Source: an uncultured Candidatus Binatia bacterium
GTDB taxonomy: Bacteria; Desulfobacterota; Binatia; HRBIN30
Assembly (NCBI GenBank): GCA_964534275.1
Contig: CAZHQG010000002.1
Location: forward strand, 140,243-204,242
Length of the DNA stretch: 64,000 nt
Direction of reading: 5' to 3'
Shown: positions 6,388 through 58,465 of the stretch, one piece after another
Numbering within the stretch: the first letter of the stretch is position 1
How the letters are laid out: each line of letters opens with the position of its first letter
Notes under the pieces: model-generated
What the model was told of the DNA's origin: nothing
What the model saw: only the letters and a program-made list of their open reading frames with translations
Database searches by the model: none
Made by a program: the position numbers and the translations under genes

Positions 6388-6404
6388 ATGCGCGTTGCCC
6401 GAGC

Positions 6405-6989
6405 CTAGGTTGACCGCGATGGTCCTCGGCCTCGGAGCTTGCGTCCGGAACCCGATCGCGTGGATCCCTCGCGCGGTTGGCGCTGCGAGGCAAGTTCTTG
6501 TCCTCCAGTGGAAGTCGTGCGTCCCGCTTGGCGGCGCTGGCATCGAGCGCAGATGCCGTAAAGCTCCATGCGGTGGCCGGTAAACAAAAACCCTTCGCGA
6601 GCGGCCACTTCGGCTTGTAACTGCTCGATGCGCTCTTCTTCGAATTCCACGATGGTGCCGCAGCGCACACAAATGAGATGGTCGTGGTGATGTCCTTCGG
6701 TGCTTTCGTAGCGCGCCTCGCCGTTGAGGAAGTGGCTTTCCGAAGCCAAACCGCACTCGGTCAGCAGCTTCATCGTGCGGTAAACGGTTGCGTAGCCGAT
6801 CCGGCGGTTGACCTTTTTCACTTCGCGGTACAGCTCGTCCACGCTGATGTGCCGCTTGGCGGCGAAAAAGACACGGGCGATGTCATCCCGTTGGGCAGTG
6901 GATTTTAAGCCGAGACGACGCAGGTGCTCCTTAAAAATACGGAAACTCTCTGCTGCAGGATCGGTTTTGGGCGCAGCAGGGCGCTCCAT
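6405..6989 (-). CDS. fur: Fur-family ferric/zinc uptake regulator with unusual Arg/Gly/Ser-rich C-terminal extension
   Basis: The winged-helix N-terminus and the HHHDHLICVRCG...CARCQ metal-site motifs are typical of Fur. About 45 extra low-complexity residues follow the last Cys pair before the stop. Confidence 0.85.
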   Translation of the reverse strand: MERPAAPKTDPAAESFRIFKEHLRRLGLKSTAQRDDIARVFFAAKRHISVDELYREVKKVNRRIGYATVYRTMKLLTECGLASESHFLNGEARYESTEGHHHDHLICVRCGTIVEFEEERIEQLQAEVAAREGFLFTGHRMELYGICARCQRRQAGRTTSTGGQELASQRQPREGSTRSGSGRKLRGRGPSRST

Positions 6990-9786: not shown

Positions 9787-9845
9787 TGCAAGGGACGAGC
9801 AGCTAGCCCCTTGGGCGCGGGAGTCGCCGACACAGGAGGAACAAG

Positions 9846-11507
9846 ATGCCTGGAAGCCAGAGAATGGAGAGCCCTCGGCCAATCGAAGAAGTGGCCGCGG
9901 ATCTGGGATTGGATGCCAGTGATTTGATGGTCTTTGGTCGGCAAATGGCGAAGGTCGAAGCACACGCCCTCGAGCGCGGTCGGCGTCGTCCGGAAGAGCC
10001 TCGCCTCGTCTTGGTGTCGGGAATTACTCCCACTGCGGCGGGCGAAGGAAAAACGACCGTGAGTATTGGACTTGCCGACGCATTTCGTTTGCTGGACAAG
10101 TCTGTGTGCCTTGCGCTCCGGGAGCCTTCGCTCGGACCATGCTTTGGGGTGAAGGGCGGGGGTACAGGAGGTGGTGCAGCGAGCTTGGTGCCGGCAGATC
10201 GCATCAACCTCCACTTTACCGGGGATTTTCACGCGGTCACGGCTGCCCACAACTTGCTTGCTGCGATGGTGGACAACCACGTGTACTTCGGGAACCCGCT
10301 TGGCATCGATCCGCGGCGGGTTACCTGGAAGCGCGTGCTGGACATGAACGATCGCAGCTTGCGTTTCATCGTTACGGGGTTGGGCGGACCAGCCCACGGC
10401 GTTCCACGCGAGGCAGGGTTCGACATCACGGCGGCGTCGGAAGTGATGGCCATGTTGTGTCTGGCGCGGGACGCCGAAGATTTGCGTCAGCGGATCGACC
10501 GCACGCTGGTTGGCTTCACGTACGATGGCGCACCAGTGACCGCCGGCCAGATCCAAGCCACTGGAGCGATGCTGGCATTGCTTCGCGACGCGTTGCTCCC
10601 GAACCTCGTGCAAACACAGGCAGGAACGCCAGCGCTGGTCCATGGCGGGCCGTTCGCCAACATCGCCCACGGCTGCAACAGCATCATCGCGACGCGGCTG
10701 GCGCTCGATTGCGCCGACTGGGTCATCACCGAGGCGGGTTTCGCCTTCGATCTCGGGGCGGAGAAATTCTTCGACATCAAATGTGTCACCGCCGGGTTCG
10801 ATACGGCGGCCGTGGTGCTGGTGACGACCGTGCGGGCGTTAAAACAACACGGAGGCGTAGCGGCAGCAGACCTCGCTCGGCCGAACCCAGCGGCAGTTGC
10901 CAGGGGCTTGCCGAATCTCGACAAGCACGTGGAAAATATCCGCGTGTTTGGCGAGCCTCCTGTGGTGGCGGTCAACCGATTCACGACGGACACCGAAGAG
11001 GAAATCGAGGTCGTACGGCGCCGCTGCGCGGCCCTGGGCGTCCCCATGGCGATCGCCCAACCGTTCGACCGCGGGGGCGAGGGTTGCGTGACATTGGCGC
11101 GCACGGTGATGGCGCACGCGGAAAAACGCAGCAAGCGGTTCCAGCCCCTGTACGACTGGAACGATCCGGTGCCGCAAAAAATTCTTCGTGTCGCGCAAGC
11201 GATGTACGGAGCAAAAGGAGTCCAGTACACCAAAGAAGCAGAGCGCGACTTGGCCCTGATTGGCCGCTATGGGTTTGACAAGTTGCCCGTCTGCTTGGCC
11301 AAAACACCGACCTCGCTTTCCGATGACCCAAAACGCTTAGGCCGTCCCGCGGATTTTGACGTGACCGTTCGTTCCATTCAGCCAGCGACGGGTGCGGGCT
11401 TTCTCGTGGTGTTGCTGGGCGACATTTTGCGCATGCCAGGCCTACCAAAGATTCCCTTGGCAACCAGAATCGATTTGCGCGACGGGAAAATCGTCGGGCT
11501 TGCTTGA
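9846..11507 (+). CDS. fhs: Formate--tetrahydrofolate ligase (formyltetrahydrofolate synthetase)
   Basis: 553 aa. The P-loop region VSGITPTAAGEGKTTVSIGL and the conserved FTHFS core are present. An AGGAGG RBS precedes the start. Confidence 0.95.
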   Translation: MPGSQRMESPRPIEEVAADLGLDASDLMVFGRQMAKVEAHALERGRRRPEEPRLVLVSGITPTAAGEGKTTVSIGLADAFRLLDKSVCLALREPSLGPCFGVKGGGTGGGAASLVPADRINLHFTGDFHAVTAAHNLLAAMVDNHVYFGNPLGIDPRRVTWKRVLDMNDRSLRFIVTGLGGPAHGVPREAGFDITAASEVMAMLCLARDAEDLRQRIDRTLVGFTYDGAPVTAGQIQATGAMLALLRDALLPNLVQTQAGTPALVHGGPFANIAHGCNSIIATRLALDCADWVITEAGFAFDLGAEKFFDIKCVTAGFDTAAVVLVTTVRALKQHGGVAAADLARPNPAAVARGLPNLDKHVENIRVFGEPPVVAVNRFTTDTEEEIEVVRRRCAALGVPMAIAQPFDRGGEGCVTLARTVMAHAEKRSKRFQPLYDWNDPVPQKILRVAQAMYGAKGVQYTKEAERDLALIGRYGFDKLPVCLAKTPTSLSDDPKRLGRPADFDVTVRSIQPATGAGFLVVLLGDILRMPGLPKIPLATRIDLRDGKIVGLA

Positions 11508-31786: not shown

Positions 31787-31873
31787 ATGCACGTCTTTCG
31801 CAAAGCACGGGAATTGGGTCTGCTTCTGGGGCTGTTGCTTCCTTGCCCGCCCGGTGCGTCTGCGGGGACGTGA
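31787..31873 (+). CDS. Leucine-rich leader peptide (28 aa, 7 Leu in a 9-residue run) of the leu operon attenuator
   Basis: It encodes MHVFRKARELGLLLGLLLPCPPGASAGT*. The Leu codons are ttg ctg ctt ctg ctg ttg ctt. It sits 130 bp upstream of leuA and is followed by a perfect terminator hairpin. Confidence 0.6.
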   Translation: MHVFRKARELGLLLGLLLPCPPGASAGT

Positions 31874-31896
31874 GTCAGGATTACGGAACCGCAAGG

Positions 31897-31936
31897 CGCC
31901 ACGGGCGGGAATCGCTGCCCGTGGCGTTTTTATTTT
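31897..31936 (+). terminator. Intrinsic terminator / attenuator hairpin of the leu leader
   Basis: The perfect 10-bp stem is CGCCACGGGC (31897-31906) / GCCCGTGGCG (31917-31926) with a 10-nt loop. It is followed by TTTTTATTTT. The leader segment CCCGCCCG (31844-31851) can alternatively pair with CGGGCGGG (31902-31909). Confidence 0.65.
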
Positions 31937-32005
31937 CGCCGCGAGCAGCTCCCTCCGGTGGCGTCGATGGAAAGGAAACCACGGAATCGAGAAGGGAGTG
32001 AAACC

Positions 32006-33559
32006 ATGAGAGAACATCAAGCGGATGTGGTGAGGATCTTCGATACCACGCTACGCGATGGCGAACAGTCGCCTGGTGCCAGCATGAATGTGGAGGAAAA
32101 GGTGTTGGTGGCCCGGCAGCTCGAGCGCCTGGGCGTGGACGTCATCGAGGCTGGCTTTGCCGCTTCGTCGCCCGGCGATTTCGAGGCAGTCGCGAAAGTG
32201 GCGGAAACCGTGACGCAGCCGGTGGTGTTAAGCCTGGCGCGCACGCGGGAGAACGACATCGTGCAAGCAATCCGCGCGGTGGAAAAGGCTCGCAACCCGG
32301 GTATTCACGTGTTCATTGCCACCTCCGACCTGCACCTCGAACGGAAGCTGATGATGAGCCGACAGGAAGTGTTGGACGCCGCCTGCTGGGCCGTGGAGTA
32401 TTGCCGAAAGCACCTGGACTACGTGGAATTCTCGGCTGAAGATGCGTCACGGTCGGACCCCGAATACCTCGTCCAAGTCTTTGGCGAAGTGATTCGTTGC
32501 GGTGCCCGGGTGGTGAACGTGCCCGACACGACCGGCTATGCGATTCCGGAGGAGTTCGGTGCTCTCTTTCGGTACCTGATTGCGAATACTCCGGGAAGCG
32601 ACCGGGTGGTTTGGAGCGCTCATTGTCACAACGACCTGGGCATGGCAGTGGCGAACTCCCTGGCTGCTGTTCGCAACGGTGCGCGGCAAGTGGAGTGTAC
32701 GGTGAATGGAATTGGCGAACGCGCTGGCAACACCTCGTTGGAAGAGGTGGTGATGGCGATCCACACGCGCAGCGACTTCTTCAAGCTGCGCACGAACATC
32801 GTGACGGAGCAAATTTACCCCGCTAGCCGTTTGCTAGCGCAAGTTACCGGGCTGGTGGTTCCGGCAAACAAGCCCATCGTTGGCGACAACGCGTTTGCCC
32901 ACGAGGCCGGGATCCATCAGGATGGAGTGCTGAAGGACAAGCAAACCTACGAAATCATGCGCCCGGAATCGATTGGTTTGCCGAGCAACAAGCTCGTGCT
33001 GGGCAAGCATTCTGGCCGGCACGCGTTTGCGCAGCGGCTCAAAGAGTTGGGGGTCGACTTGTATGGCGTGGACATGAACAAGGCCTTTGCCAAGTTCAAG
33101 GAACTCGCCGACCGGAAGAAGTTCGTGTACGACGAAGACATCCTCGCCATCGTTACCGAAGAAGCGGTGCGCGGACCGGACTACCTCGAGTTGCTGCACC
33201 TAGAGGTCAGTGCGGGCACCAACTCCGTACCCAAAGCGGTGGTGCGGCTGCGCGTGGATGGTACGGAAAAAGAGGGTGCGGCCCATGGGGACGGGATGGT
33301 GGACGCGTGTTTCAAGGCGATTTCCGACTTGGTCGGCGTGCACCCGCGGCTCGAGCGATATGCAGTAAAAGCCATTACCGGCGGTACCGATGCGCTGGGT
33401 GAAGTTTCGTGCCTCATTAGCTTGAACGGGGTGACCGCCACAGGGCAAGGAGCACACACGGACATTGTGCACGCCAGTGCCTTGGCCTATGTGAACGCGC
33501 TCAACAAAGTTCAGAATCGCCGCACGCGATACCGCCAAATTTCTGGCGAAGAGCCGTGA
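32006..33559 (+). CDS. leuA: 2-isopropylmalate synthase (with C-terminal LeuA allosteric domain)
   Basis: The motifs LRDGEQ and HCHNDLGMAVANSLAAV and a C-terminal regulatory domain are present. The RBS GGGAGTG is upstream. Confidence 0.95.
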   Translation: MREHQADVVRIFDTTLRDGEQSPGASMNVEEKVLVARQLERLGVDVIEAGFAASSPGDFEAVAKVAETVTQPVVLSLARTRENDIVQAIRAVEKARNPGIHVFIATSDLHLERKLMMSRQEVLDAACWAVEYCRKHLDYVEFSAEDASRSDPEYLVQVFGEVIRCGARVVNVPDTTGYAIPEEFGALFRYLIANTPGSDRVVWSAHCHNDLGMAVANSLAAVRNGARQVECTVNGIGERAGNTSLEEVVMAIHTRSDFFKLRTNIVTEQIYPASRLLAQVTGLVVPANKPIVGDNAFAHEAGIHQDGVLKDKQTYEIMRPESIGLPSNKLVLGKHSGRHAFAQRLKELGVDLYGVDMNKAFAKFKELADRKKFVYDEDILAIVTEEAVRGPDYLELLHLEVSAGTNSVPKAVVRLRVDGTEKEGAAHGDGMVDACFKAISDLVGVHPRLERYAVKAITGGTDALGEVSCLISLNGVTATGQGAHTDIVHASALAYVNALNKVQNRRTRYRQISGEEP

Positions 33560-33582: not shown

Positions 33583-34686
33583 TTGGTGCGCGTTTTAGTA
33601 TTGCCGGGAGACGGGATTGGTCCGGAAGTGACAGCTCAGGCACAGCGGGTACTGGAACGCTGTGCCGAGCTGTTTGGCTTGAGCCTGGAGTTCGATACCG
33701 CGGTTGTGGGTGGAGCGGCGATCGACCGTACTGGCACGGCCCTGCCGAGCGAAACGTTGAAGTTGGCGCTCGACAGCGACGCGGTGTTGCTGGGCGCTGT
33801 GGGTGGCCCGAAATGGGACGACCCGCAGGCGAAAGTCCGCCCGGAACAAGCGCTGCTCGGGTTGCGCAAAGAGCTGGGCTTGTATGCCAACCTGCGTCCG
33901 GTACGCCCCGTTCCTGAGCTTCTCGATGCCTCGCCGTTGAAACCAGACGTCTTGCGAGGGGTCGATTTAGTCGTGGTGCGCGAGCTCACGGGCGGAATTT
34001 ATTTTGGCCAGCCAAGCGAGCGTCGCGTGGGCGCGAACGGACGTGAGGCCGTGGACACCATGGCTTACAACGAGCACGAGATTGCCCGGTTGCTGCACAC
34101 CGCCTTTGGGCTTGCGCGACAACGGCGCCGCCGGCTGACGTCGGTCGATAAGGCAAACGTATTGTCCTCGTCGCGGTTGTGGCGCGAGGTGGCACACGAA
34201 GTCCGGAGGGAGTACCCCGACGTGAGCTACGAGGATGTGCTCGTGGATGCCATGGCCATGCATCTGTTGCGCCGCCCCCGCGACTTCGATGTGATCGCTA
34301 CGGAAAACTTGTTTGGCGACATCCTTACGGACGAAGCTTCGATGCTGGCTGGTTCCATGGGCTTGCTGCCTTCGGCTTCTCTGGGGGAGGCGCGCAACCG
34401 TTTGGGGTATCCACGCGGTCTGTACGAACCGATTCATGGCAGCGCTCCGGACATTGCGGGGCAAAACAAAGCCAATCCGTTGGCGGCGATTCTTTCTGCC
34501 GCGATGTTGCTGCGGCACTCCCTCGGGCACGAGGCTGCGGCATGCGCAGTGGAGAGCGCCGTCGCCCGCGTGCTCGCAGACGGGTTGCGCACTCCGGATA
34601 TCCAGCAACGAGGCTGCCGCCTGGTGGGATGCGAGGAAATGGGCGCTGCTGTAGTCGGCGCGCTCGAGGCACTGCCCCGAGAATGA
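33583..34686 (+). CDS. leuB: 3-isopropylmalate dehydrogenase
   Basis: The N-terminus [15 protein letters not shown] and the IPMDH/IDH family core are present. The start is TTG 33583 or GTG 33586. The RBS GAGGGAGAGAG is upstream. Confidence 0.95.
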
Positions 34687-35717
34687 GAAAGTCGCAGTAC
34701 AACGTCGCCATCATTGGCGCCACTGGCACTGTGGGGCGCGAGCTGGTGGCAGTTCTCGACCAACGTGGCTTCCCTCTGGGCTCTTTGCGATTGTTTGCCA
34801 GCGCGGCCTCGGCCGGTGACGAAAACGAGGTGGCCGGCGTGAGGATCGAAGAGCTCACGGGCGACACGAGGCTCAAGGACACGGATTTGGTGTTCCTCGC
34901 ATGCCAAGAAACGGTAGCGCGCGTGTGGCGTAGCCGTGCCCTCGAGGCTGGGGCGTTCGTGATCGACTTAGGCGCGGGCAATGCTGGTGCTCCATCCATG
35001 CCGCTTGTGGTACCGGAGGTGAACGCCGCAGCGCTGGCGCGCGTGCGCGAAGGGCGCCTCGTTGGCAGCCCCGACCCTGCCGCGATCGCGTTAGCGGTGG
35101 TGCTGGGTGCAGTGAGTCAGATCGTTGCAATCCGCGACGTTGTCGCAACCGTGCTCGACCCCGTTTCGTTGGCTGGGCGTCAGGGAATCGAGGTTCTGGA
35201 GCAGGAGCTGTACGACTTGCTGAACGGTCGAGAACCAGCTCCGCCGCGGATTTTTTCTCAGCGGATCGCCTTTAACGTCGTTCCCGATGTGGGCGGGGGC
35301 ACGGCAACCCTAGAAACTCGCGGGGAGCAGGTGTTGCGAGAGCACGTGCGCTTGCTGCTCGGGGACCCTGGACTTCCGGTGCACGCGACTCGTGTGCAAG
35401 TTCCCGTGTTTTTTGGGCTCTCGATTGCGGTCGAACTGCGGCTCGCGCGATCGGTGACCGTGCACGAAATCGAGTCTCACTTACAGTCGGCTCCTGGCGT
35501 CTTGCTCGTCGCATCGGGAGGCGAGGTGCAAGGTGCACCGCTGCCGTTGCCAACGCCCGCAACGGTCATGGGCAGCGATGCCACGCACGTCGCGCGTGTG
35601 CGGGTAGATCCCGAGGTCCCCTCGGTGGCTTGCTGGCTGGCAATCGACAATACCCGCAAAGGGTCGGCAACGAACGCGGTGCAAATTGCCGAGTTGTTGG
35701 TTCGCGACTACCTGTGA
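34683..35717 (+). CDS. usg: Aspartate-semialdehyde dehydrogenase homolog (USG-1-like) lacking the catalytic Cys and His
   Basis: ATG overlaps the leuB stop (ATGA). NAD(P) motif [11 protein letters not shown]. Asd-like throughout. The segment [10 protein letters not shown] aligns to Asd GIIANPNCSTIQ with Cys replaced by Pro. The segment [11 protein letters not shown] aligns to VPV(F/Y)YGHAEAV with His replaced by Leu. The C-terminus [19 protein letters not shown] is Asd/USG-like. Confidence 0.8.
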
Positions 35718-35723
35718 GCGCGC

Positions 35724-36542
35724 ATGCGCTACAAGTTGCTCGTCCAGTACGAGGGCACTGCGTATTTGGGTTGGCAAGTACAGCCGCATGGCCGGACGAT
35801 TCAGGGTGAATTCGAGCGTGCCTTGCGGAACCTCACCGGCGGGGCGGTCCGCGTTGCCGCGGCTGGGCGTACGGATGCTGGTGTGCACGCCTCCGGCCAG
35901 GTGGTGAGTTTTTCCCTCGACCGCGCTTGGGCGCCGGAGGTCCTAGCCCGGGCACTCGACGCCATCACGCCGGCGGACATTGCCGTGTTGCAAGCGGAAG
36001 TGGTACCCGACGATTTCGATCCGCGAAGGTGGGCACTAAGCCGCACGTACACGTACCGCATTTGGAACCACAGGGTAGGTTCTCCGTTTTGGCGACGTTA
36101 CGCGTGGCACGTTCCATACCGGCTCGACATCGCGGCGATGCAGGACGCGGCTGCGGTGCTGTGTGGCGAGCACGATTTTGCTGCGTTCCGCGCTGCTGGC
36201 TGTGCGGCAGCTCACTCGCGCCGGCAGGTGCTGCAGAGCACCTGGATCGGGCAGGGACCCTTACTCGTGTACTCCATCGAGGCGAACGGTTTTTTGCGCC
36301 ACATGGTGCGGAACGTAGTGGGCACCTTGGTAGAAGTCGGAAGCGGCAAGCGTTCCCCGGACGATATGCGGCGCCTGCTTGCGGCGAAGGACCGTACGCT
36401 AGCCGGGCCGACTGCCCCAGCACATGGGTTGTGCCTTTCGCGGGTCCGCTATCCCGATCCTCTCGTTCGCCCGGGACAAAAGAACGGCGCCCAGCTACGG
36501 GAGGTCACCGAGCCAGGCGCCGACACAGACGACGTTTCCTAG
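35724..36542 (+). CDS. truA: tRNA pseudouridine(38-40) synthase
   Basis: The N-terminus MRYKLLVQYEGTAYLGWQVQP and the catalytic Asp region AAAGRTDAGVHA are present. Confidence 0.9.
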   Translation: MRYKLLVQYEGTAYLGWQVQPHGRTIQGEFERALRNLTGGAVRVAAAGRTDAGVHASGQVVSFSLDRAWAPEVLARALDAITPADIAVLQAEVVPDDFDPRRWALSRTYTYRIWNHRVGSPFWRRYAWHVPYRLDIAAMQDAAAVLCGEHDFAAFRAAGCAAAHSRRQVLQSTWIGQGPLLVYSIEANGFLRHMVRNVVGTLVEVGSGKRSPDDMRRLLAAKDRTLAGPTAPAHGLCLSRVRYPDPLVRPGQKNGAQLREVTEPGADTDDVS

Positions 36543-36569: not shown

Positions 36570-37415
36570 TCACAGGGTGTAGGCGATTCCCAGAGCGATG
36601 CCCCAGTCGGTGGCGGCGTCCGTGCCGCCTACCATTCCGGTGGGCCGGACGATCAAGCGGTCCGAAAAATACATATCCACGCCAGGCCACACCGTGAGGT
36701 CGACGTTGCGGAAGCCGCCTTGGTGGAACACCCGCAACACTGCTTCGCCGCGGAGCGTGTAAAAATCGTTGCCTTTGAGAAACAAAGATAGGCTCGTGTT
36801 GAAGACATCGGGAACATCGCCAGTGAAAAACTGGTATCCCAGGTGGCCACCGAGTCCAATGCGCCCCCAGGTGACCCGACTTGAGACGAACGGGTTCAGT
36901 CCGACCTCGTCCGTACCGAAGTCCTTGCTCTTGCTTCCGGACGGAACGGAAACTTGCACGCCCGCGCCCCAACGCATGATGTCCATCACAGGCTGGGTAA
37001 ACTTGCCGTAAAGTTGGACGTCACCCATGTCTTCTTTGGTGCTCTTTTGGCCAGCGACGGTGCGCGACTCGATGTAACCAGGCAAAAGAAAACCAACTTC
37101 CGCGTTCTTGGACAAACCATAGGACCCGAGCAAATTGAAAATTCCGCCGTCGGTGCTGATTTCCTTTCGGGCAATTGCCGGTGGCTTCGGAATGCGGAAA
37201 CCGATCAAGTTGAACCTTGCCCCCGGATCGTCTTGAACTTTGATCCCTTGGACTTCGAGCCGGAACCGTCCCTCGTCCACCGTGGCTGCATCGATCGTGA
37301 ATGTCCGGAAGGTTCGCTCGTGTCCGGAAAGCTCCACCGCCCGCGCGTGGGATGCCACGGCCATTGCCGCCGCGATCAGCCCGATCCCAATCCTCCGCCT
37401 GATTGCATCACCCAT
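36570..37415 (-). CDS. Outer-membrane beta-barrel protein (MetA-pathway/OmpW-like size class)
   Basis: The signal peptide is MGDAIRRRIGIGLIAAAMAVASHA. Amphipathic beta-strands alternate throughout. The C-terminus has an aromatic residue near the end (GIAYTL). Confidence 0.65.
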   Translation of the reverse strand: MGDAIRRRIGIGLIAAAMAVASHARAVELSGHERTFRTFTIDAATVDEGRFRLEVQGIKVQDDPGARFNLIGFRIPKPPAIARKEISTDGGIFNLLGSYGLSKNAEVGFLLPGYIESRTVAGQKSTKEDMGDVQLYGKFTQPVMDIMRWGAGVQVSVPSGSKSKDFGTDEVGLNPFVSSRVTWGRIGLGGHLGYQFFTGDVPDVFNTSLSLFLKGNDFYTLRGEAVLRVFHQGGFRNVDLTVWPGVDMYFSDRLIVRPTGMVGGTDAATDWGIALGIAYTL

Positions 37416-37886: not shown

Positions 37887-39119
37887 TCACTCTGGGGCTC
37901 CAAGCCAGTACGAGGGAATGACCACAATGTTCTTGTTCGCTGCGGCTCGCGCCACTTTCGGGTCCACGGTGTAGGAGACCACGAAAACAAAACGATTTGC
38001 ACCGACGAAACCGTATTTTTCCAGTCGCTGCAAACGCTTTTCGAGTTTCGTTAAGTGTTTGAGTCCCAAACGTGCCTTGGCTTCGCCAACCACCGTGACC
38101 GTTTGCCCGTTTTGTACGGCAGTGCCGAAAATGTTCAATTCCTCTGCTCCGCCATCCGGATACTCTACCCATTTTCGCTCCAGTGCACCCTGGACCTCGA
38201 GACCGAAATGCTTTCGAAGCACTTTCGGTAAACGGAAAATGGCACGGTCCTCCAGGCCGTAGCCCACGGCGTCCGACAAGTTGGCAAGCATTTCACGTGT
38301 TTGCCGATGGTCGCGCACAAGCGCCTGCACTTGTTTGGTGAGTTGGCGAAGTTCCTGCTGCGTTTGCCGGTGCGATTCGGTGAGTTCCTTTAGGCTGCGC
38401 TGGGTTTCCTCCATCGCGGCAGTGAGCGCTGCAAAGCGGAGATCTGTCGCGTTGCGGAATTCGCAATACTCTTGATAGGCGCGCTCCTGGGCTGCCGTGA
38501 GTTCGGCGAAACGCTGGTTGGCGACTCTGCGGAACTCGGAGAATTCTTGGTATGCACGTTCCTGGGCGGCGGTGAGGCTAGCGACTGCGGCCTCGGTGCG
38601 TTGCTGGGCAGCAGCGAGTTCGGCGAAGCGCTGGTCTGTTGAGGCACGAAGCTGGGCAAGCTCTTCCCCCGTGCGCTGCTGGGCTGCAGCAAGTTCGGCG
38701 AAGCGCTGGTCAACGACTGTGCGGAACTCGGAGAATTCTTGGTATGCGCGTTCCTGGGCGGCGGTGAGGCTAGCGACTGCGGCTTCGGTGCGCTGCTGGG
38801 CAGCGGCAAGCTCTTGTACTCGGTGTTCGGTTCGGGCTTGCGCGTCGGCGAGAAGTGCGAAGCGTTGGTCGACGTGACGGCGGAGTTCCACCAGCTCGTG
38901 TTCGACACGTTCCTTCAATCGCTCGTCGGTGCGTTGCTGGGCTTCCGCAAGATCACGCAGGGCGTCACGCAGTTCTGCAAACTCAGCCTTGGTCACTTGG
39001 TCGCGCATCTCGTCGTAAAGGGTGGCCAGTGCGCGTACCAACACCGCGGCGGTATCCGGATCGAGGCTCCGGCCCGCTACGGCACTGAGTTCGGCAAGTG
39101 TGGATGCAAAGGTAGCCAC
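37887..39119 (-). CDS. Coiled-coil repeat protein with C-terminal PD-(D/E)XK-like (DUF3782-like) domain
   Basis: 410 aa. The N-terminal two-thirds consist of repeated heptad modules (FAELAAAQQRTEAAVASLTAAQERAYQEFSEFR occurs twice, plus diverged copies). The C-terminal ~130 aa read YPDGGAEELNIFG...VTVVGEAKARL, consistent with a restriction-endonuclease-like D...E.K arrangement. Confidence 0.7.
   Translation of the reverse strand: MATFASTLAELSAVAGRSLDPDTAAVLVRALATLYDEMRDQVTKAEFAELRDALRDLAEAQQRTDERLKERVEHELVELRRHVDQRFALLADAQARTEHRVQELAAAQQRTEAAVASLTAAQERAYQEFSEFRTVVDQRFAELAAAQQRTGEELAQLRASTDQRFAELAAAQQRTEAAVASLTAAQERAYQEFSEFRRVANQRFAELTAAQERAYQEYCEFRNATDLRFAALTAAMEETQRSLKELTESHRQTQQELRQLTKQVQALVRDHRQTREMLANLSDAVGYGLEDRAIFRLPKVLRKHFGLEVQGALERKWVEYPDGGAEELNIFGTAVQNGQTVTVVGEAKARLGLKHLTKLEKRLQRLEKYGFVGANRFVFVVSYTVDPKVARAAANKNIVVIPSYWLGAPE
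38461..38830. repeat. Intragenic tandem direct repeats (~180-bp period)
   Basis: Two ~100-bp copies at 38527-38632 and 38708-38806 are >90% identical (ggaactcggagaattcttggtatgcRcgttcctgggcggcggtgaggctagcgactgcggcYtcggtgcgYtgctgggcagc...). A diverged third copy lies at 38461-38525. Confidence 0.85.
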
Positions 39120-49033: not shown

Positions 49034-49876
49034 CTAGGGGGCCGCGTCGCCAAAGGGTTGTTTCCAACCAGTGCTCCGGATCCAACGGATGTATGCCATG
49101 AGGGCGTTCAATTGATGCGGGGTGAGTCGATCGCCGTACGCAGGCATGTAGACGCGTTGCCGCTCGATGAAGCGACGTGCCAGAGGATGGCGGCGCAACC
49201 GGTCGATATTGCCCTCTTGGATCCACTGGCGCAACTCGTCATCGTTGCGCACCAAGTCGCGAAAGTCGTTTCCCCACCAGCCTGGGATGTAGCCTTTGAA
49301 CGAGCCTGGGTTTGGAACGCCGCCCGCGCCCATGGGCCCGTGGCAATGGAAGCAGCCGAACTCCACGGCGAGCTCGTGTCCCTCCCGTGCGAGCGGATCG
49401 CTGGGGAGAACAAGATCCGACCGTGCGCGAATGTACGCGATCAGGTCATCGACCTCCCGATCCGATAGGAAGCCGCGGTATGCCGGCATCACGAGCAACC
49501 ACTGACGTGTCTTTTCCCGATACGCCGGGTCGCTGCGTTTGCGCGCCGGAGCACCGTCGAGGATGTATTCCCGGAGTTCTTGCTCGTTCTTGGCCCACAT
49601 CATGGGAACGCCGCCGGCGAACCCGGGGACTTCTTCGTCTTCGCTGCCAGGGTTCTTGACCCCACCCATGCCGTCGGGCCCGTGGCAGGTGAAGCAGCCC
49701 GATCGCAGCGCGATTTCATAGCCGCGCCGGGCTGCGGTGGTCTCCACATCGAGGATGATCCTGCGAGCCGACGGGTACACCCAGATGGCCAGGACGAAAA
49801 AAAACGCGAGCGTCCAAAAGCGCCGAACCAAAAACTCCCGCAGCCGCCGCACCCCGTGCTCCGATCCTGGCTTCAC
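49034..49876 (-). CDS. Membrane-anchored diheme c-type cytochrome
   Basis: Two CXXCH motifs (CFTCHG, CFHCHG) follow an N-terminal TM anchor (FWTLAFFFVLAIWVY). The GTG at 49876 overlaps the archease TGA stop (GTGA). Confidence 0.75.
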   Translation of the reverse strand: MKPGSEHGVRRLREFLVRRFWTLAFFFVLAIWVYPSARRIILDVETTAARRGYEIALRSGCFTCHGPDGMGGVKNPGSEDEEVPGFAGGVPMMWAKNEQELREYILDGAPARKRSDPAYREKTRQWLLVMPAYRGFLSDREVDDLIAYIRARSDLVLPSDPLAREGHELAVEFGCFHCHGPMGAGGVPNPGSFKGYIPGWWGNDFRDLVRNDDELRQWIQEGNIDRLRRHPLARRFIERQRVYMPAYGDRLTPHQLNALMAYIRWIRSTGWKQPFGDAAP

Positions 49877-50304
49877 AAATCCACAACCACCGTCGCGACC
49901 CAACGCCCGTTTTGTTTCCGTACCGAAAGGCGGTGCAACGTAACTGCCTTTACGTCGGCGCTCAACCAGTGTCGGGAGGGGTCGACTTGTTCTCCGGCGA
50001 GCACTGCCTCCGCTCGATAGGGCGGCTGTTCAGCATGCACCGTGCACGACGTTGCGCGCAAGAACAGCTGCTCCGCATCTTTGAAGTACAGGATCTCCTC
50101 GAGGAACCGTACGAGCAAAAAGTCGAGATCCTCGGCCTCGACCACGACGGTACGCTGCTCCCGTTCCTGCACGGCTTCCGGGTTCCCGACCATGAGCGAC
50201 AGCAACGCGTCGGCAGCGGAGCGAAAGCACTCTTCGAGCGTATCTCCCCATGCCTCGAAGCCGGCATCGGAAATCGGGGCATCCTCGAGCCAGCGAAACG
50301 GCAC
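49873..50304 (-). CDS. Archease (RtcB activator)
   Basis: The GTG start at 50304 lies 6 bp after the rtcB stop. The N-terminus reads MPFRWLEDAPISDAGFEAWGDTLEE, where the archease pattern is FxxLEHTADxGxxAxGxxLEE. Length is 144 aa. Confidence 0.7.
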   Translation of the reverse strand: MPFRWLEDAPISDAGFEAWGDTLEECFRSAADALLSLMVGNPEAVQEREQRTVVVEAEDLDFLLVRFLEEILYFKDAEQLFLRATSCTVHAEQPPYRAEAVLAGEQVDPSRHWLSADVKAVTLHRLSVRKQNGRWVATVVVDL

Positions 50305-50309
50305 GCGCC

Positions 50310-51797
50310 TCAGCCCTTTACGTTTCCAATGGGAGTGAAGCGCACAACGGGCAGGCTCAGTCCCGCTTCGGTGGTGGCCGCGACGACCGCGTCGATGTTC
50401 TTGTAGGCGGCCCCAGCTTCCTCGGCTAAGCCAGCGTACGATACGCTGCGAACGTAAATGCCCCGTGCAGCCAGCGCTTGTTCGAGTTCCTTGCCGTGGA
50501 ATTGCTTCTTGGCAGCGTGGCGGCTCATCGTGCGTCCACTGCCGTGGGCTGTGGTAAAAAAGGCTTGTTTGCCCGTGGACACCCCGCGCAATAGGTAGGA
50601 GCCAGTTTCCATACTGCCGCCAATGATCACCGGCTGGCCAATCTCCCGGTACGGAGCGGGTACGTCGGGCATACCAGGCGCGAACGCCCTTGTCGCGCCC
50701 TTGCGATGTACGAGAAGCTTGCGCCTGCGGCCGCCCACTTCGTGTTCTTCGAGTTTGGCGGTGTTGTGACAAACGTCGTATACCATTTCGAGTCCGAGCT
50801 CGCGCGCGTCGCGATGCAAGACCTCGCTGAAGACCTCGCGGACCCGGTGCAAAATCATCTGGCGGTTCGCGAACGACATGTTGATGCCACACTTCATGGC
50901 TGCGAAGTACGCTTGCCCTTCGGGAGAGCGGAACGGGGCGCAAGCAAGGTCGCGGTCGGGCAACTTGATCCCCCACTTCTTTTCCATGAGCGGCGCGAAT
51001 TGCTGGACGTAGTCGCTCGCGATCTGGTGCCCGAACCCACGGCTTCCGCAGTGAAACATGACGACGACCTGATACGGTTTGGTAATCCCCATCACCGCTG
51101 CAGCCTCGGGATCGAACACGTGCTCGGGTTTCACGATTTGGATTTCCAAATAGTGATTGCCAGACCCGAGCGTTCCAACTTGTGTCCGCCCGCGCTCCAA
51201 CGCTCGACGGCTTACTTTCGATGGGTCTGCTCCTGCAATCGCGCCGCCTTCTTCCGTGCGCTCCAAGTCTTCGGGCCAACCGTATCCATGAGCCACGCAC
51301 CAGCGTGCGCCCTGGACGGCGACTTCCGCGAATTCGTCGTCGGAGAGTTTCAAAAAGCCGTGCGCTCCGACGCCGGCCGGCACCCGGCGGTACAGGGCGT
51401 CCACCAGCTCTCGCACCCGTTCGCGAATCTCATCGTACACCAAGTTGGTACGCACCAAGCGCATCCCGCAATTGATGTCGAACCCGATGCCTCCGGGCGA
51501 GATGACCCCTTCGTCAGGATCCATTGCGGCCATGCCCCCGATCGGGAACCCATAGCCCCAGTGGCCATCGGGCATGCAAAAGGCCCGCTCCACGATGCCA
51601 GGGAGCATGGCGACGTTCGTGACCTGCTCGAACACGCCGTCGTCCATTTGCTCGAGTAGCTCTTCCGTGGCGTAAATCCTCGCCGGCACCCGCATGCCTG
51701 GTTTTGCGTCAGGCGGAATCTCCCAGGTAGCAGGCCCAACGGGAACAACTTTCTTCCTCAATTCCGAGCCCTTTAGTGCCGGTACCGCCATGCTCAT
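50310..51797 (-). CDS. rtcB: RNA-splicing ligase RtcB
   Basis: ATG at 51797 (MSMAVPALKG...). RtcB metal and GTP-site motifs are present (DGHWGYGFPIGG, FDINCGMRLV, GSGNHYLEIQ, HCGSRGFGHQ, VCHNTA, TTAHGSGR). Confidence 0.9.
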   Translation of the reverse strand: MSMAVPALKGSELRKKVVPVGPATWEIPPDAKPGMRVPARIYATEELLEQMDDGVFEQVTNVAMLPGIVERAFCMPDGHWGYGFPIGGMAAMDPDEGVISPGGIGFDINCGMRLVRTNLVYDEIRERVRELVDALYRRVPAGVGAHGFLKLSDDEFAEVAVQGARWCVAHGYGWPEDLERTEEGGAIAGADPSKVSRRALERGRTQVGTLGSGNHYLEIQIVKPEHVFDPEAAAVMGITKPYQVVVMFHCGSRGFGHQIASDYVQQFAPLMEKKWGIKLPDRDLACAPFRSPEGQAYFAAMKCGINMSFANRQMILHRVREVFSEVLHRDARELGLEMVYDVCHNTAKLEEHEVGGRRRKLLVHRKGATRAFAPGMPDVPAPYREIGQPVIIGGSMETGSYLLRGVSTGKQAFFTTAHGSGRTMSRHAAKKQFHGKELEQALAARGIYVRSVSYAGLAEEAGAAYKNIDAVVAATTEAGLSLPVVRFTPIGNVKG

Positions 51798-51841
51798 GAA
51801 ACTACTCGCCTCTCGGGATTCTGGCAACTGGTCGAGAGCCG

Positions 51842-52714
51842 GTGGTTGCACGTGCGCGTCGTACTCGCGAGAACATCGGATTCGTGAGATACGTGTTGGA
51901 ACTCCGCGTTTCGCACGCGAACGTGGACTTCGTTGGCGAACAAAAGCTTGCCGACTTGCTCGGAATGTTCGAGCAGGCTGCGGTCGAAGCCTCGCAAGCC
52001 TGCGGCTGGGATCCTCGAGCATACGCTGCCGCGCAGCGAGTATGGATGATTCGGCGCACGCGCGTGTGGCGCTGGGCGGCGGTTGGCGGGCTCGACCAAC
52101 TGCGCGTGGAGACGCAGGTGGCAGACGTACGCCGAGCGCGCTCTTTGCGCGAGTACCGCGTGTGGTCCGGGTCGGTGCTCGTTGCCGAGGCCGCCACGGA
52201 TTGGGTGTACTGCGATGTTCAGCGAGGACGACCAGTGCGCATCCCCGAAGAACTGGCTGCTGCGTTACATGGCGGTGGAGCCGTTCCGCACTGCGAGCGC
52301 GCCCCGCACCCGTTCGAGACACCGGCGGAGTCCCCGGAGATCGAAACGGTCACGGTACAGCCGTCGCACTTGGACCACGTCCAGCACGTGAACAACGCCA
52401 CGTACGTAGACTTCCTGGACAACGCAGCTTTGTCGTGGTGCGGGCGCCAAGGTTGGCCGCTTGCCCGTATGCTTGCAGAAGGCGGGGCCCTGCGGCCCGT
52501 AGGTATCGATGTGGAATACCTCGACGATGCGGGCGTAGGCGAGTTCTTGGAGGTTGCCACGTGGGGGCGGTGGGAGCGAGACGAGGAGGGGCCTCCCCGC
52601 GCGGCTTCGTTTTGGCAGGTGATTCGCCGGCCGTCGGGTAGCACGCTGCTGCGTGCCTTCGCGCACTACCGTTGGCGCCAACGTTCGCCGGTGCTCGGAG
52701 CGCCTCCCTCGTAA
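51842..52714 (+). CDS. Acyl-ACP/acyl-CoA thioesterase-like double-hotdog protein
   Basis: Two hotdog halves are present, the second carrying HLDHVQHVNNATYVDFL (4HBT-type). Start uncertain. Confidence 0.6.
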   Translation: MVARARRTRENIGFVRYVLELRVSHANVDFVGEQKLADLLGMFEQAAVEASQACGWDPRAYAAAQRVWMIRRTRVWRWAAVGGLDQLRVETQVADVRRARSLREYRVWSGSVLVAEAATDWVYCDVQRGRPVRIPEELAAALHGGGAVPHCERAPHPFETPAESPEIETVTVQPSHLDHVQHVNNATYVDFLDNAALSWCGRQGWPLARMLAEGGALRPVGIDVEYLDDAGVGEFLEVATWGRWERDEEGPPRAASFWQVIRRPSGSTLLRAFAHYRWRQRSPVLGAPPS

Positions 52715-52950
52715 AGCGAGTGTTTGTTCCTTCCAGAAGTTTTCATGTGCCGTGGTTCGGTGAGCTTGGAGAGCCACAATTCGCTCAGGCCGCATCCTGT
52801 ACGCGAACCGGTTGGAGCGCTCCGTGGCACAGGAGCCAGGAATCGCGGCCAGATGGAAAGAAGACAAGGAGGCGCGCATCGGCTACCGGTCGCCAGGTCC
52901 TAGAGCACCCGCCGATCCACTGACCGATGCGCGCCTCGAATCCACGTAGC

Positions 52951-53964
52951 TTATCGTGGCAGTTCCGGCTTCGCGATGTATTGCGCGTCGATGCGGCCGG
53001 TGAGCGCGTTCAAGAAAGCGACAATGTCAGCAACGTCTGTGTCGCTCAGTTGTCGGCCGAGTTGGTACTCCGCCATGAGCCGCACCATTTCCGGCAACGT
53101 GCCGATGCTGCCGTCGTGCAAGTAGGGGGCAGTTTTGGCGACGTTTCGTAGCGACGGAACCTTGAAGAATCCGCGCTCTGCCTCGTTGCCCGTGACCTTG
53201 GCTCGCCCGGGGTCCTCGGTGGGATACGGCTTTACCAGGCCAAGCTTCTGGAACATCGTGCCGCCCACAGTCGGCCCATTATGGCAGGTGACGCAACCAA
53301 CGGAGATAAATTTGGACAGGCCTGCGCGTTCTTGTTCGTTCAGGGCCGAGTCGTTTCCCGCCAAGAAGTCATCGAAGCGCGATGGTGTCACCAACTTGCG
53401 TTCGAACGCACCAATGGCCCGCGCAATGTTGTCGTAGGTAATCGGCTTTTCCTGTCCCGGGAATGCGGCGCGAAACAGAGGCAGGTAGCCGGGGATCTTT
53501 TCGAGCTTCGCGACCACCGCTTCCTCTGACGGCATGCCCATCTCGATGGGATTCAAAATGGGGCCTTTCGCTTGTTCTTCGACGTCGCGCGCACGGCCGT
53601 CCCAGAACTGGGCAATGTGGAACGCCGCGTTGTAGGTGCTCGGCGAATTCCTGTCGCCGCGGCGGCCGTCGTGGCCGGGGGACGTCTTCTCGTTATCGAC
53701 GCCAAAGCGGTCGAGTTGGTGGCAACTGTTACAGGCAATCTTATCGTTTACCGACAATCGGGCGTCGTAATACAACATCCGCCCGAGGCGAATTTTCTCT
53801 TCGGTAACCGGATTTTCTTTGCTCTCGGCCACCGGAGGCAACGGCGAAAAAATGGCCGCCGCTCGGGCGCGTAGCTCCGCGGGCGACTCGCCTTCCGCTT
53901 TCCCGAGCGTCCCAAAGATCGCAAAGATCGCAAGCAAGACTGCAAAACACCGAAAACGCCTCAT
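52951..53964 (-). CDS. Diheme cytochrome c peroxidase (CcpA/MauG family)
   Basis: ATG at 53964 with signal MRRFRCFAVLLAIFAIFGTLGKA. Two heme motifs CNSCHQ and CVTCHNG are present, along with a conserved Trp and His-rich interdomain region. Confidence 0.85.
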   Translation of the reverse strand: MRRFRCFAVLLAIFAIFGTLGKAEGESPAELRARAAAIFSPLPPVAESKENPVTEEKIRLGRMLYYDARLSVNDKIACNSCHQLDRFGVDNEKTSPGHDGRRGDRNSPSTYNAAFHIAQFWDGRARDVEEQAKGPILNPIEMGMPSEEAVVAKLEKIPGYLPLFRAAFPGQEKPITYDNIARAIGAFERKLVTPSRFDDFLAGNDSALNEQERAGLSKFISVGCVTCHNGPTVGGTMFQKLGLVKPYPTEDPGRAKVTGNEAERGFFKVPSLRNVAKTAPYLHDGSIGTLPEMVRLMAEYQLGRQLSDTDVADIVAFLNALTGRIDAQYIAKPELPR

Positions 53965-54193
53965 AGGAAACCCAATCCTCCTTTCCACCACTGGGTTCCA
54001 CCGGCGCGTATGTCGGGCCGGTGGCAACGCCTGTTGATAATGCAGCTCGGCGGTGAGTCCAGTGCCTTGCGACTGCGAAAACAAAGTCGCCGGTTCGGGT
54101 GCGGACGTTCGCGAGTTGCTGGCGAAGGCGCCTTCCTTGCCTCGCGCTTCTAGCCTTTGCAGAGTTGCGGCGAACACCTATACGTCGCTCGCT

Positions 54194-58099: not shown

Positions 58100-58354
58100 C
58101 GCGCGTGCCTGACCGTGGCGCCAAGACCGCGCACCGGACCGCTCTCCCTTCCACGGCAACCCGGTGAATTGCCACCGCATCCAAGGACCCGAGTCGCTTC
58201 ACGCACGCCCGTCGAAACGGCGGAGGAGTGTGCTGAGCCGTAGCGAGATGTTGACCTTCAGGAATCGGGATCGTGGGGACGCGAGTTCTTCACACACCTG
58301 CAGGCGCGAAGCGGCGGACTCCGGGAAGTTTGTGCAGCGCTTCCGAACGGGGAA

Positions 58355-58443
58355 CGGAGAGGGAGGGATTCGAACCCTCGGTAGAGTTTTAGCCCTACAC
58401 ACGCTTAGCAGGCGTGCGCCTTCGACCTCTCGGCCACCTCTCC
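58355..58443 (-). tRNA. tRNA-Ser (anticodon GCU), type II with long variable arm; CCA not encoded
   Basis: The reverse complement reads GGAGAGGTGGCCGAGAGGTCGAAGGCGCACGCCTGCTAAGCGTGTGTAGGGCTAAAACTCTACCGAGGGTTCGAATCCCTCCCTCTCCG. The acceptor stem is 7 bp. The anticodon loop is CTGCTAA. The T-loop is GGTTCGAATCC. Confidence 0.85.
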
Positions 58444-58465
58444 AAGCGTTAGATGGCGGCTTTGC

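Follow-up and report, generated by a model that had tools for sequence, protein, structure and literature searches.

To our knowledge, proteins of the Usg/USG-1 type, which have been recognised since the 1980s, still have no assigned function. E. coli carries a separate functional asd (aspartate-semialdehyde dehydrogenase) besides usg. The Usg protein of E. coli and Salmonella (b2319; NF005957/PRK08040) is an Asd homologue in which the catalytic Cys is replaced by Ser and the substrate Arg by Gln; its gene lies in the operon pdxB-usg-truA-dedA, and usg and truA overlap by one base in locus L088. A usg mutant of Salmonella has an intracellular-survival phenotype (PMC6358828). The USG-1 homologue of P. 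aeruginosa (PA3116; PDB 2HJS; NF004224/PRK05671) is also devoid of the catalytic Cys (its column holds Ala, directly preceded by a Cys), of the catalytic His (Asp) and of the substrate Arg (Gln), and the gene order in Pseudomonas is leuB, a gamma-type asd (TIGR01745, 644 bits), the Cys-less USG-1 homologue, fimV and truA. A 2025 review describes the USG branch, together with some Asd2-affiliated sequences, as having lost every catalytic residue and as otherwise uncharacterised, and it mentions Cys-less clades within the GapDH superfamily that are still active (PMC12041015); for the USG branch it offers neither genomic context nor an analysis of lineage or conservation. Our literature searches yielded no report joining USG-1 with aspartate-semialdehyde dehydrogenase, nothing functional on PA3116 and nothing relevant on amino-acid biosynthesis in Binatota.

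We analysed a 64-kb stretch of DNA from an uncultured Candidatus Binatia bacterium (hereafter the window, with positions counted from its first letter). It encodes an Asd-like protein that joins this known and unexplained class of dead Asd copies: the example is new, the class is not, and the review's description of a branch that has lost its catalytic amino acids fits the protein. Its gene follows a leader peptide, leuA and leuB and precedes truA in an operon that, judging from its candidate leader, would be attenuated by leucine. The features of the operon are as follows:

31787..31873, + strand: candidate leu leader peptide MHVFRKARELGLLLGLLLPCPPGASAGT, with 7 Leu within 9 residues (read from the sequence)
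31893..31940, + strand: attenuator- or terminator-like hairpin with a 16-bp stem including 10 G-C pairs, then TTTTTATTTT (terminator scan)
32006..33559, + strand: leuA, 2-isopropylmalate synthase (Pfam, NCBIfam)
33583..34686, + strand: leuB, 3-isopropylmalate dehydrogenase (TIGR00169, 488.9 bits, cut-off 353)
34683..35717, + strand: Asd-fold protein without catalytic residues (344-aa ORF; Pfam, HMMER, AlphaFold, column table)
35724..36542, + strand: truA, tRNA pseudouridine 38-40 synthase (TIGR00071, 195.9 bits, cut-off 142.85)

The start of leuA was set at the ATG at 32006, giving a protein of 517 aa (516-517 aa in homologues), and the TruA translation contains the motif GRTDAGVHA. The original prediction had the Asd-like gene starting over the leuB stop and ending 6 bp before truA, and both junctions are as it described: the leuB TGA and the Asd-like ATG share the 4 bases ATGA (34683-34686), and 6 nt separate the stop codon (35715-35717) from the start of truA (ATG at 35724). 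The hairpin is located directly upstream of leuA, and its core (CGCCACGGGCGG...CCGTGGCG) and T-rich tail are kept in L084, L001, L085, L086 and L087; a short Leu-rich ORF was found at the matching position 5' of leuA in all six dead-Asd loci (6/6). Using Rfam, no known RNA element was detected in the operon leader, and a tandem repeat finder returned no tandem repeats at 36-40 kb of the window.

That the protein is an Asd homologue, as first proposed, is borne out by both of its Pfam domains (PF01118 at residues 7-119 and PF02774 at residues 146-326) and by a confident AlphaFold2 model (pLDDT 91.8, pTM 0.91), which has the two-domain Asd fold, a Rossmann N-domain followed by a dimerisation domain, with a TM score of 0.92 to V. 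cholerae Asd2 (2r00/2qz9) and of 0.90 to 2hjs. V. cholerae Asd2 was the best match by structure and by sequence (E = 1e-47). The C-terminal helix of Asd (DNxRKGxxxNAVQIAE) is kept in the protein, as is the Rossmann glycine motif, whose G12, G15 and G18 are invariant in true Asd and in 47/47 members of the dead clade described below. Assignment to a family was less straightforward. The protein scored 204.8 bits on TIGR01296 (type-B Asd), below the cut-off of 324.2, and the generic PRK14874 model was the only Asd model that it passed (231.3 vs a cut-off of 223). The proposed likeness to Usg and USG-1 stands insofar as the protein lacks the Cys and adjoins truA, but not at the level of family membership: it remained below the cut-offs of NF005957, the E. 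coli Usg family (154.4 bits, cut-off 273; E. coli Usg itself 683.5), and of NF004224, the Pseudomonas USG-1 family (236.5 bits, cut-off 284; 2HJS 586), a model that gives higher scores even to two true Asds, P0100 (292) and P0229 (302). In a neighbour-joining tree with 200 bootstraps, the clade of the window protein grouped with pseudomonad USG-1 sequences at a support of only 29% and Usg grouped, weakly, with V. cholerae Asd2 and apart from that clade, the supports bearing on a single or a multiple origin of the Cys-less lineages being 17-29%.

The residues on which the argument turns are encoded at these positions:

34716..34736, + strand: Rossmann glycine motif GATGTVG, residues 12-18, kept (column table)
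35076..35078, + strand: Pro132 codon, in the catalytic-Cys column (HMMER and MAFFT alignments, column table)
35391..35399, + strand: R237-V238-Q239 codons, with Q239 in place of the substrate-binding Arg (column table)
35418..35420, + strand: Leu246 codon, in the catalytic-His column (HMMER and MAFFT alignments, column table)

In an HMMER alignment against V. cholerae Asd2 (2qz9), P132 (SPDP) falls under the Cys of ANPNC and L246 (FFGL) is aligned to the His of FYGH; both columns were reproduced in three MAFFT alignments, which took in a further 120, 80 and 150 homologues, and no Cys or His of the window protein was placed at the catalytic columns. The two substitutions of the original prediction, Cys to Pro and His to Leu, are thus confirmed, although the codons lie a few to about 10 bases downstream of the ranges it gave. 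The loss extends to most of the active site (numbered as in V. cholerae Asd2: Arg100, Gln158, Lys215 and Arg237): A101 and V217 stand in place of the phosphate-binding Arg and Lys, D159 in place of the conserved Gln and Q239 in place of the substrate Arg, leaving Glu215, which in Asd holds the substrate amino group, as the only substrate- or phosphate-site residue kept. Since the window protein and 8/11 members of its sub-clade have Ala in place of the Arg of the ASxRS motif that contacts the NADP 2'-phosphate, even nucleotide binding is uncertain. The prediction had also argued against a sequencing error. SPDPAA and FFGLS are common to the independent database sequences P0001 (which represents 21 member sequences), P0002 and P0003, at 99, 96 and 93% identity, so that an error at both codons, for which we counted nothing in favour, is vanishingly improbable. 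Because the residues are replaced in an intact frame under selection, a sequencing artefact is excluded and the protein is, as proposed, non-catalytic or differently catalytic. The prediction also called it a paralogue, for which homologue of Asd is the safer term, as no second Asd homologue was found in the 64-kb window or retrieved from the genomes with this gene.

Compared with its described relatives, the window protein has the same fold as PA3116 (TM 0.90, 36% identity), and in a pseudomonad locus (L042) the USG-1 homologue is also located between leuB and truA. The two differ in context, as Pseudomonas has a working gamma-type asd immediately upstream and fimV before truA, neither of which is found in the window, and in the replacements at the Cys and His columns, which are Pro and Leu in the window protein and Ala and Asp in PA3116; 2HJS also lacks an Arg237 that is conserved in the dead clade. 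Usg resembles the window gene in lacking the Cys and in lying directly upstream of truA, but it is found 3' of pdxB rather than of leuB and retains the His (VFYGH) where the window protein has Leu. Type-B Asd (TIGR01296; V. cholerae Asd2, 2QZ9/2R00) shares with the window gene both the fold and the slot in leuB-asd-truA, but has the residues of the chemistry, all of which are missing from the window protein.

The slot is one point on which the original prediction did not hold, as it had taken the locus for the enterobacterial usg-truA linkage additionally fused to the leu operon, while leuA-leuB-asd-truA is a widespread arrangement of intact asd. Catalytically intact copies occupy it in L002 (Thermodesulfobacteriota), L011 (Geobacter), L082, L090 and L091-096, P0076 from another organism is an intact asd between leuB and truA, and intact asd is tightly linked to truA in L003, L010, L011, L082 and L090. 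The dead copy occurs in the order (ilvN-ilvC-psd-pssA-)leuA-leuB-X-truA-hypothetical-recN-NAD kinase in L001, L084, L085, L086, L087 and L098. Its distance to truA is 3-66 nt across Binatia loci; in L099 the two are separated by a small ORF and an antitoxin gene. Because related genomes hold an intact asd at this position, a dead descendant of the resident asd is the best reading of the gene. The locus would add to the class a lineage of deep and separate divergence, with a dead copy that descends, by position, directly from the housekeeping asd.

At least 47 sequences form a clade that shares the state without catalytic residues; those with a name are from Candidatus Binatia or bacterium HR30. 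Both former catalytic columns are highly variable among them, the Cys column being P/A/S/V/T and the His column T/E/L/A/S/M/V/G/Q/H. To describe what else changed, we used the 72 columns that are at least 95% invariant among 49 non-redundant true Asds. The dead clade (n=47) keeps 42/72 of these columns at 90% or more and has lost 11/72 (R101, I126, N131, C132, T134, Q159, E214, K217, E221, H246 and A328), among them all residues known to act in catalysis or to bind substrate or phosphate, save E215. The substrate Arg R239, which is Gln in the window protein, is kept in 31/47 members, and the NADP-binding Arg42 varies. The column table of the same 47 sequences also contains 12 conserved replacements specific to the clade, none of which is a new conserved Cys, His, Ser, Tyr or Lys. 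At former active-site columns they include D131 (83%), E159 (87%, acidic in 47/47) and P160 (91%), and 45 members (96%) have R237 where true Asd has Cys or Thr, two residues before Q239 and in a predicted beta-strand (E233-239; DSSP of the model). Together, the conserved D131, E159, P160 and R237 provide a comparative basis for binding and mutational tests.

Rates were compared with those of the neighbouring genes. Against a 93%-identical homologue, dN/dS was 0.25 for the Asd-like gene and 0.02-0.13 for leuA, leuB and truA. The Asd-like proteins are 43-58% identical between loci where LeuA is 77-91% identical, with the frame intact, while a pair of true Asds is 80% identical where LeuA is 87% identical; the gene evolves fastest in the operon, and its protein 2-3 times faster than the neighbouring enzymes. 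Intact frames of 337-350 aa are present in the window and in six comparison loci (L001, L084-L087 and L098) drawn from a group of 55 members. Taken together, the sequence and the model have the generic hallmarks of a pseudoenzyme, with the fold kept, the catalytic residues gone and purifying selection (dN/dS 0.25). Judged by its sequence, the Asd-like gene is not the product of a sequencing error, nor is it a pseudogene in decay.

Our preferred explanation, to which we give a probability of roughly 0.6, is that the gene descends, with its catalysis lost, from the type-B asd normally located between the leu genes and truA, and that its product is now a non-catalytic binding protein. The protein retains the Asd fold, the Rossmann GxxGxxG and the C-terminal helix and is without the Cys, the His, the Gln and the phosphate-binding Arg and Lys, with the substrate-carboxylate Arg additionally lost in the sub-lineage of the window protein; with these residues gone, the thioester intermediate of the Asd reaction could presumably not form. 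The gene would be co-transcribed with leuA and leuB behind the Leu-rich leader peptide and the attenuator hairpin, and inherited vertically through the Binatia-type lineage under a purifying selection weaker than that on its neighbours. Its product would act as a dimeric non-catalytic binding protein, a pseudoenzyme, with a nucleotide and/or an amino-acid-like ligand bound in a remodelled pocket that, going by the alignment columns, combines the kept substrate-amino Glu with the clade-specific Asp131, Glu/Asp159, Pro160 and Arg237. Actual Asd activity would be supplied from outside the window, by a separate gene.

The conserved acidic and basic residues of the old pocket would, as far as sequence goes, suit a new catalytic site equally well. 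The protein could then be a neofunctionalised enzyme that binds NAD(P)H and uses Asp131, Glu159, Glu215 and Arg237 to run a thiol-independent redox reaction on an amino-acid-like substrate. This is a less probable though serious alternative, to which the retention of E215, the 12 clade-specific replacements, several of them at former active-site columns, and the Cys-less yet active GapDH-superfamily clades (PMC12041015) lend some weight; it sits poorly with the high variability of both former catalytic columns, of R239 and of Arg42, with the lack of any new conserved Cys, His, Ser, Tyr or Lys and with a rate 2-3 times that of the neighbouring enzymes. That same high rate, the highest in the operon, and the loss of the catalytic residues are what one would expect of a decaying pseudogene or a functionless passenger of the operon. 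We consider this very improbable given the dN/dS of 0.25, the intact frames, of 337-350 aa in the window and the six comparison loci and kept across no fewer than 47 sequences of the clade, the confident predicted fold and the 42/72 Asd-invariant columns kept: as the loss is limited to the residues of the chemistry and the fold and the remodelled pocket are conserved, a real non-catalytic or new role is favoured over decay.

The neighbourhood suggests a further possibility, namely that the dead Asd is retained because it cooperates with TruA or is required to express truA, for instance as a tRNA-binding partner or through translational coupling. Dead copies lie directly upstream of truA in E. 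coli and Binatia, and those of pseudomonads lie in the leuB-truA interval with only fimV intervening; in many genomes, however, intact asd is linked to truA no less tightly, which makes inheritance rather than function the probable reason for the adjacency, L099 has an antitoxin gene and a small ORF in between, and coupling alone would not preserve sequence at the level of the fold. A role of this kind is therefore improbable, and its specific form, in which dead Asds are dedicated TruA partners such as tRNA-binding accessory subunits using the GAPDH-like Rossmann fold, slightly more so. If true, it would account for dead asd copies beside truA in enterobacteria, pseudomonads and Binatia, and would tie the pseudouridine 38-40 modification of tRNA in Binatia to Leu-leader attenuation of the operon. 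There is finally little to recommend the protein as the sole Asd of the organism, making aspartate semialdehyde by unusual chemistry. It stands exactly where the housekeeping asd would be and our searches found no other asd, within a window of 64 kb, but it lacks the Cys, the His, the Gln, both Args and the Lys, the catalytic columns vary among orthologues, and E. coli and Pseudomonas, which have comparable proteins, have a separate asd; this is even less probable than decay.

To look for a working asd, we searched all six-frame ORFs of the 64-kb window with phmmer using six Asd/USG queries, which returned no second Asd homologue; none of the 30 other window proteins was assigned to the aspartate pathway by Pfam, and no second Asd homologue was found within 10 kb in the homologous loci. 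In a scan of genome contigs with peptides from the clade alignment, the matches listed were true Asds and included no member of the clade, because the peptides chosen are common to both; the loci obtained in this way served to document the leuB-asd-truA linkage of intact asd. With the true Asds P0100 and P0229 as seeds, one search extending down to about 53% identity and another confined to 82% or more retrieved mainly close relatives of the seeds and, by accession, none from the assemblies with dead copies. The genomes with a dead copy may conceivably lack a conventional asd altogether. An origin of the dead copy by tandem duplication was considered and rejected, as there is no true asd beside it in 8/8 Binatia-type loci, including that of the recently derived P0218. 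As the PRK14874 cut-off is passed, annotation pipelines would still name the protein Asd, and JGI and NCBI do label such proteins "aspartate-semialdehyde dehydrogenase"; through this routine naming, a non-functional enzyme may be entered in the Lys/Thr/Met/DAP pathway when the metabolism of Binatia and similar MAGs is reconstructed.

The protein encoded between leuB and truA, a homologue of aspartate-semialdehyde dehydrogenase (Asd) termed dead Asd here, was aligned with HMMER to solved structures. In the comparison with V. cholerae Asd2, Pro132 fell in the catalytic Cys column (ANPNCSTIQ) and Leu246 (VFFGLSIAV) in the catalytic His column (VFYGHAEAV). Three independent MAFFT alignments gave an identical placement. 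The original prediction had named both substitutions correctly but located them slightly upstream of their actual codons:

34683-35717, + strand: dead Asd ORF, 344 aa
35076-35078, + strand: Pro132 codon, catalytic Cys column (HMMER and MAFFT alignments)
35418-35420, + strand: Leu246 codon, catalytic His column (HMMER and MAFFT alignments)

A sequencing error at these codons, already doubted in the original prediction, was excluded by the same residues in database sequences at 99, 96 and 93% identity. The phosphate-binding Arg and Lys are replaced by Ala101 and Val217, the conserved Gln by Asp159 and the substrate-carboxylate Arg by Gln239, leaving Glu215, which holds the substrate amino group, as the only one of these Asd-reaction residues kept; we take the roles of these columns to be those of published Asd structures and mechanism. 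Asd homology, as first proposed, is borne out by the Pfam domains PF01118 (residues 7-119) and PF02774 (residues 146-326) and by a confident Asd fold in the AlphaFold2 model (pLDDT 91.8, pTM 0.91). Structural comparison of the model gave TM-scores of 0.92 with V. cholerae Asd2 and 0.90 with 2HJS, the USG-1 homologue of P. aeruginosa. The start codon is well placed because homologues are all 337-350 aa long and aligned from residue 1. As originally described, it overlaps the leuB stop (ATGA, 34683-34686), and 6 nt separate the dead Asd stop from the truA ATG at 35724. The window leuA, leuB and truA are bona fide according to NCBIfam equivalog models.

The catalytic Cys is absent from all 57 closest database homologues (42-99% identity) and the His from almost all, true Asds (ANPNC...GH) starting at ~39% identity. 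In a bootstrapped neighbor-joining tree, the protein falls in an 11-sequence sub-clade (98% bootstrap) nested in a 47-sequence Cys-less clade (63%), which joins an 8-sequence, likewise Cys-less sister group at 80%; members of this dead clade bearing names are Candidatus Binatia or bacterium HR30. The former Cys column (P/A/S/V/T) and His column (T/E/L/A/S/M/V/G/Q/H) are freely variable within the clade. Against the 93%-identical homologue, dN/dS was 0.25 for dead Asd, 0.02 for leuA, 0.08 for leuB and 0.13 for truA. Dead Asd is 43-58% identical between loci whose LeuA are 77-91% identical, and a true Asd pair is 80% identical where LeuA is 87% identical; dead Asd is therefore constrained, yet its evolutionary rate is two to three times that of working Asd. 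From a set of 49 non-redundant true Asds we defined 72 Asd-invariant columns, each at least 95% invariant. Of these, 42 are preserved at ≥90% in the dead clade, including Rossmann GATGxVG, PEVN, AFN..P, P.FG and the C-terminal DNxRKG..NAVQIAE, and only 11 have been lost (R101, I126, N131, C132, T134, Q159, E214, K217, E221, H246 and A328). The loss is targeted, with the affected columns clustering on the active site. Of the 12 clade-specific conserved replacements, several lie in the old pocket: Asp131 stands in place of Asn and Glu/Asp159 in place of Gln, alongside Pro160 and Arg237. Arg237 precedes the former substrate Arg by two residues, within a stretch modelled as a beta-strand. Absence of the catalytic residues characterises the family as a whole, which is under selection rather than decaying.

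Six other dead-copy loci (L001, L084, L085, L086, L087, L098) share the order (ilvN-ilvC-psd-pssA-)leuA-leuB-dead asd-truA followed by a conserved hypothetical gene (~280 aa), the 4-base leuB overlap being present in five. Next come recN and NAD kinase in the four loci that are long enough, and in the window after one inserted gene. In related genomes the same slot holds a fully intact asd: L090 and L091-096 (ilv-psd-pssA-leuA-leuB-asd-truA), L082 (leuA-leuC-leuD-asd-truA), L002 from Thermodesulfobacteriota (leuA-leuB-asd-truA) and L011 from Geobacter. In many genome loci among the matches listed, an asd that has both Cys and His adjoins leuB or truA. By position, the window gene therefore descends from the resident asd. 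The originally suggested usg-truA pair later attached to the leu operon was rejected on these grounds, and the evolutionary origin is clearer than first proposed. The observation itself is real and its interpretation was largely right.

Among proteins in the same slot, P0085, from a related lineage, lacks the Cys and keeps the His and both Args. P0218 (L097, 5231-6259; 68% identical to true Asd) and P0219 have Gly/Ser and Gly/Asp at the Cys/His columns, are 65-68% identical to the fully intact Asd P0100 and keep the substrate Arg; both appear to be more recent active-site losses. Such loss is common and diverse: of the 150 representatives that best match the clade profile (clustered at 50%), 72 are without the Cys and 74 intact. 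In Ectopseudomonas (L042), the order leuB, gamma-type asd (TIGR01745, 644 bits), Cys-less USG-1 homologue, fimV, truA sets a precedent for a type B copy without the chemistry where another asd is present. At the Cys-less locus L099, the Asd-like gene is separated from truA by a PhdYeFM-type antitoxin gene and a 66-aa ORF (6170-6741), so tight spacing is not universal.

The closest known proteins, P. aeruginosa PA3116 (2HJS) and E. coli Usg, are likewise Cys-less, truA-linked Asd homologues, both without known function. The window protein scored 236.5 bits against NF004224 (cut-off 284; 2HJS, 586), where true Asds scored higher, and 154 bits against NF005957 (cut-off 273; E. coli Usg, 683), and a common USG clade had 21-29% bootstrap. 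It was therefore assigned to neither curated family and is probably a lineage of the same kind that diverged separately. According to a 2025 review, no catalytic residue is left in the USG branch or in certain Asd2-affiliated sequences, about which nothing further is known (PMC12041015); the window protein adds a new member to this known but uncharacterised kind. Both NCBIfam models, 'equivalog' models from Usg/USG-1 proteins, assign the product name aspartate-semialdehyde dehydrogenase. The window protein (231 bits) also exceeds the 223-bit cut-off of the generic PRK14874 (NF011456), as do Cys-less P0011, P0014, P0116, P0060 and P0218; catalytically dead proteins therefore receive the name Asd in automated annotation.

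The protein retains its fold, lacks the chemistry residues, is under purifying selection and keeps its operon position. Asd thioester chemistry should not be possible, and we favor a non-catalytic role as a dimeric binding protein, in which the remodelled pocket (E215, R237, D131, E159) and the Rossmann site would bind a ligand or partner. Asd activity would be supplied by a gene elsewhere; no working asd was found in the 64-kb window, or for these genomes among the matches listed in the collection scans. As the main alternative to a binding role, the protein may have a new enzymatic activity that needs no thiol. A role tied to TruA has its appeal but little support, since intact asd is found next to truA in the same way.

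Upstream of leuA, we found two elements:

31787-31873, + strand: Leu-rich leader ORF MHVFRKARELGLLLGLLLPCPPGASAGT, 28 codons, 7 Leu within 9 residues
31893-31940, + strand: terminator-like 16-bp G+C-rich hairpin followed by a T-run, 3' of the leader ORF

A Leu-rich leader followed by the same hairpin core was present in all six dead-copy loci checked (window, L084, L001, L085-L087); the window leader and hairpin (31787-31940) had no Rfam match. By analogy with the established leu operon mechanism, the arrangement resembles the classical signature of leader-peptide attenuation. As the coding regions overlap or nearly abut, this putative attenuator implies leucine-controlled co-expression of dead Asd and TruA with leuA and leuB. 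TruA modifies tRNA positions 38-40, and older Salmonella genetics links hisT/truA mutations to derepression of the his, leu and ilv operons. With truA (35724-36542) in an operon apparently attenuated by translation of Leu codons, a feedback loop is conceivable. A different conserved hairpin (ACTCCCGYTGGC...GCGGGAGTTTTT) lies in the last ~100 nt before leuA in the intact-asd relatives L090, L091, L082 and L002 and in the P0218 locus L097, where filtering for Leu-rich leaders before leuA gave no candidate; it may represent a different attenuator type.

Other genes of the window were as follows:

36570-37415, - strand: hypothetical protein, 281 aa, convergent with truA, signal-peptide-like N-terminus
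37887-39119, - strand: 410-aa protein between the conserved hypothetical gene and recN, repeated Ala/Gln/Glu-rich segments in the N-terminal two-thirds
7426-11507, + strand: adjacent phosphoketolase (XFP, 786 aa) and formate-tetrahydrofolate ligase (553 aa)
49034-54177: cytochrome c and di-haem cytochrome c peroxidase
58354-58444, - strand: tRNA-Ser(GCT)

Neither the 281-aa nor the 410-aa protein had a Pfam match. In L001, L085 and L087, the gene maps are empty at the position of the 410-aa insertion, whose product contains FAELAAAQQRTEAAVASLTAAQERAYQEFSEFR at least twice; tandem repeat finder detected no DNA-level repeats in the gene. A gene of similar size to that of the 281-aa protein (273-287 aa), likewise with no Pfam match, occupies the same place in L001, L084, L085, L086, L087 and L098.
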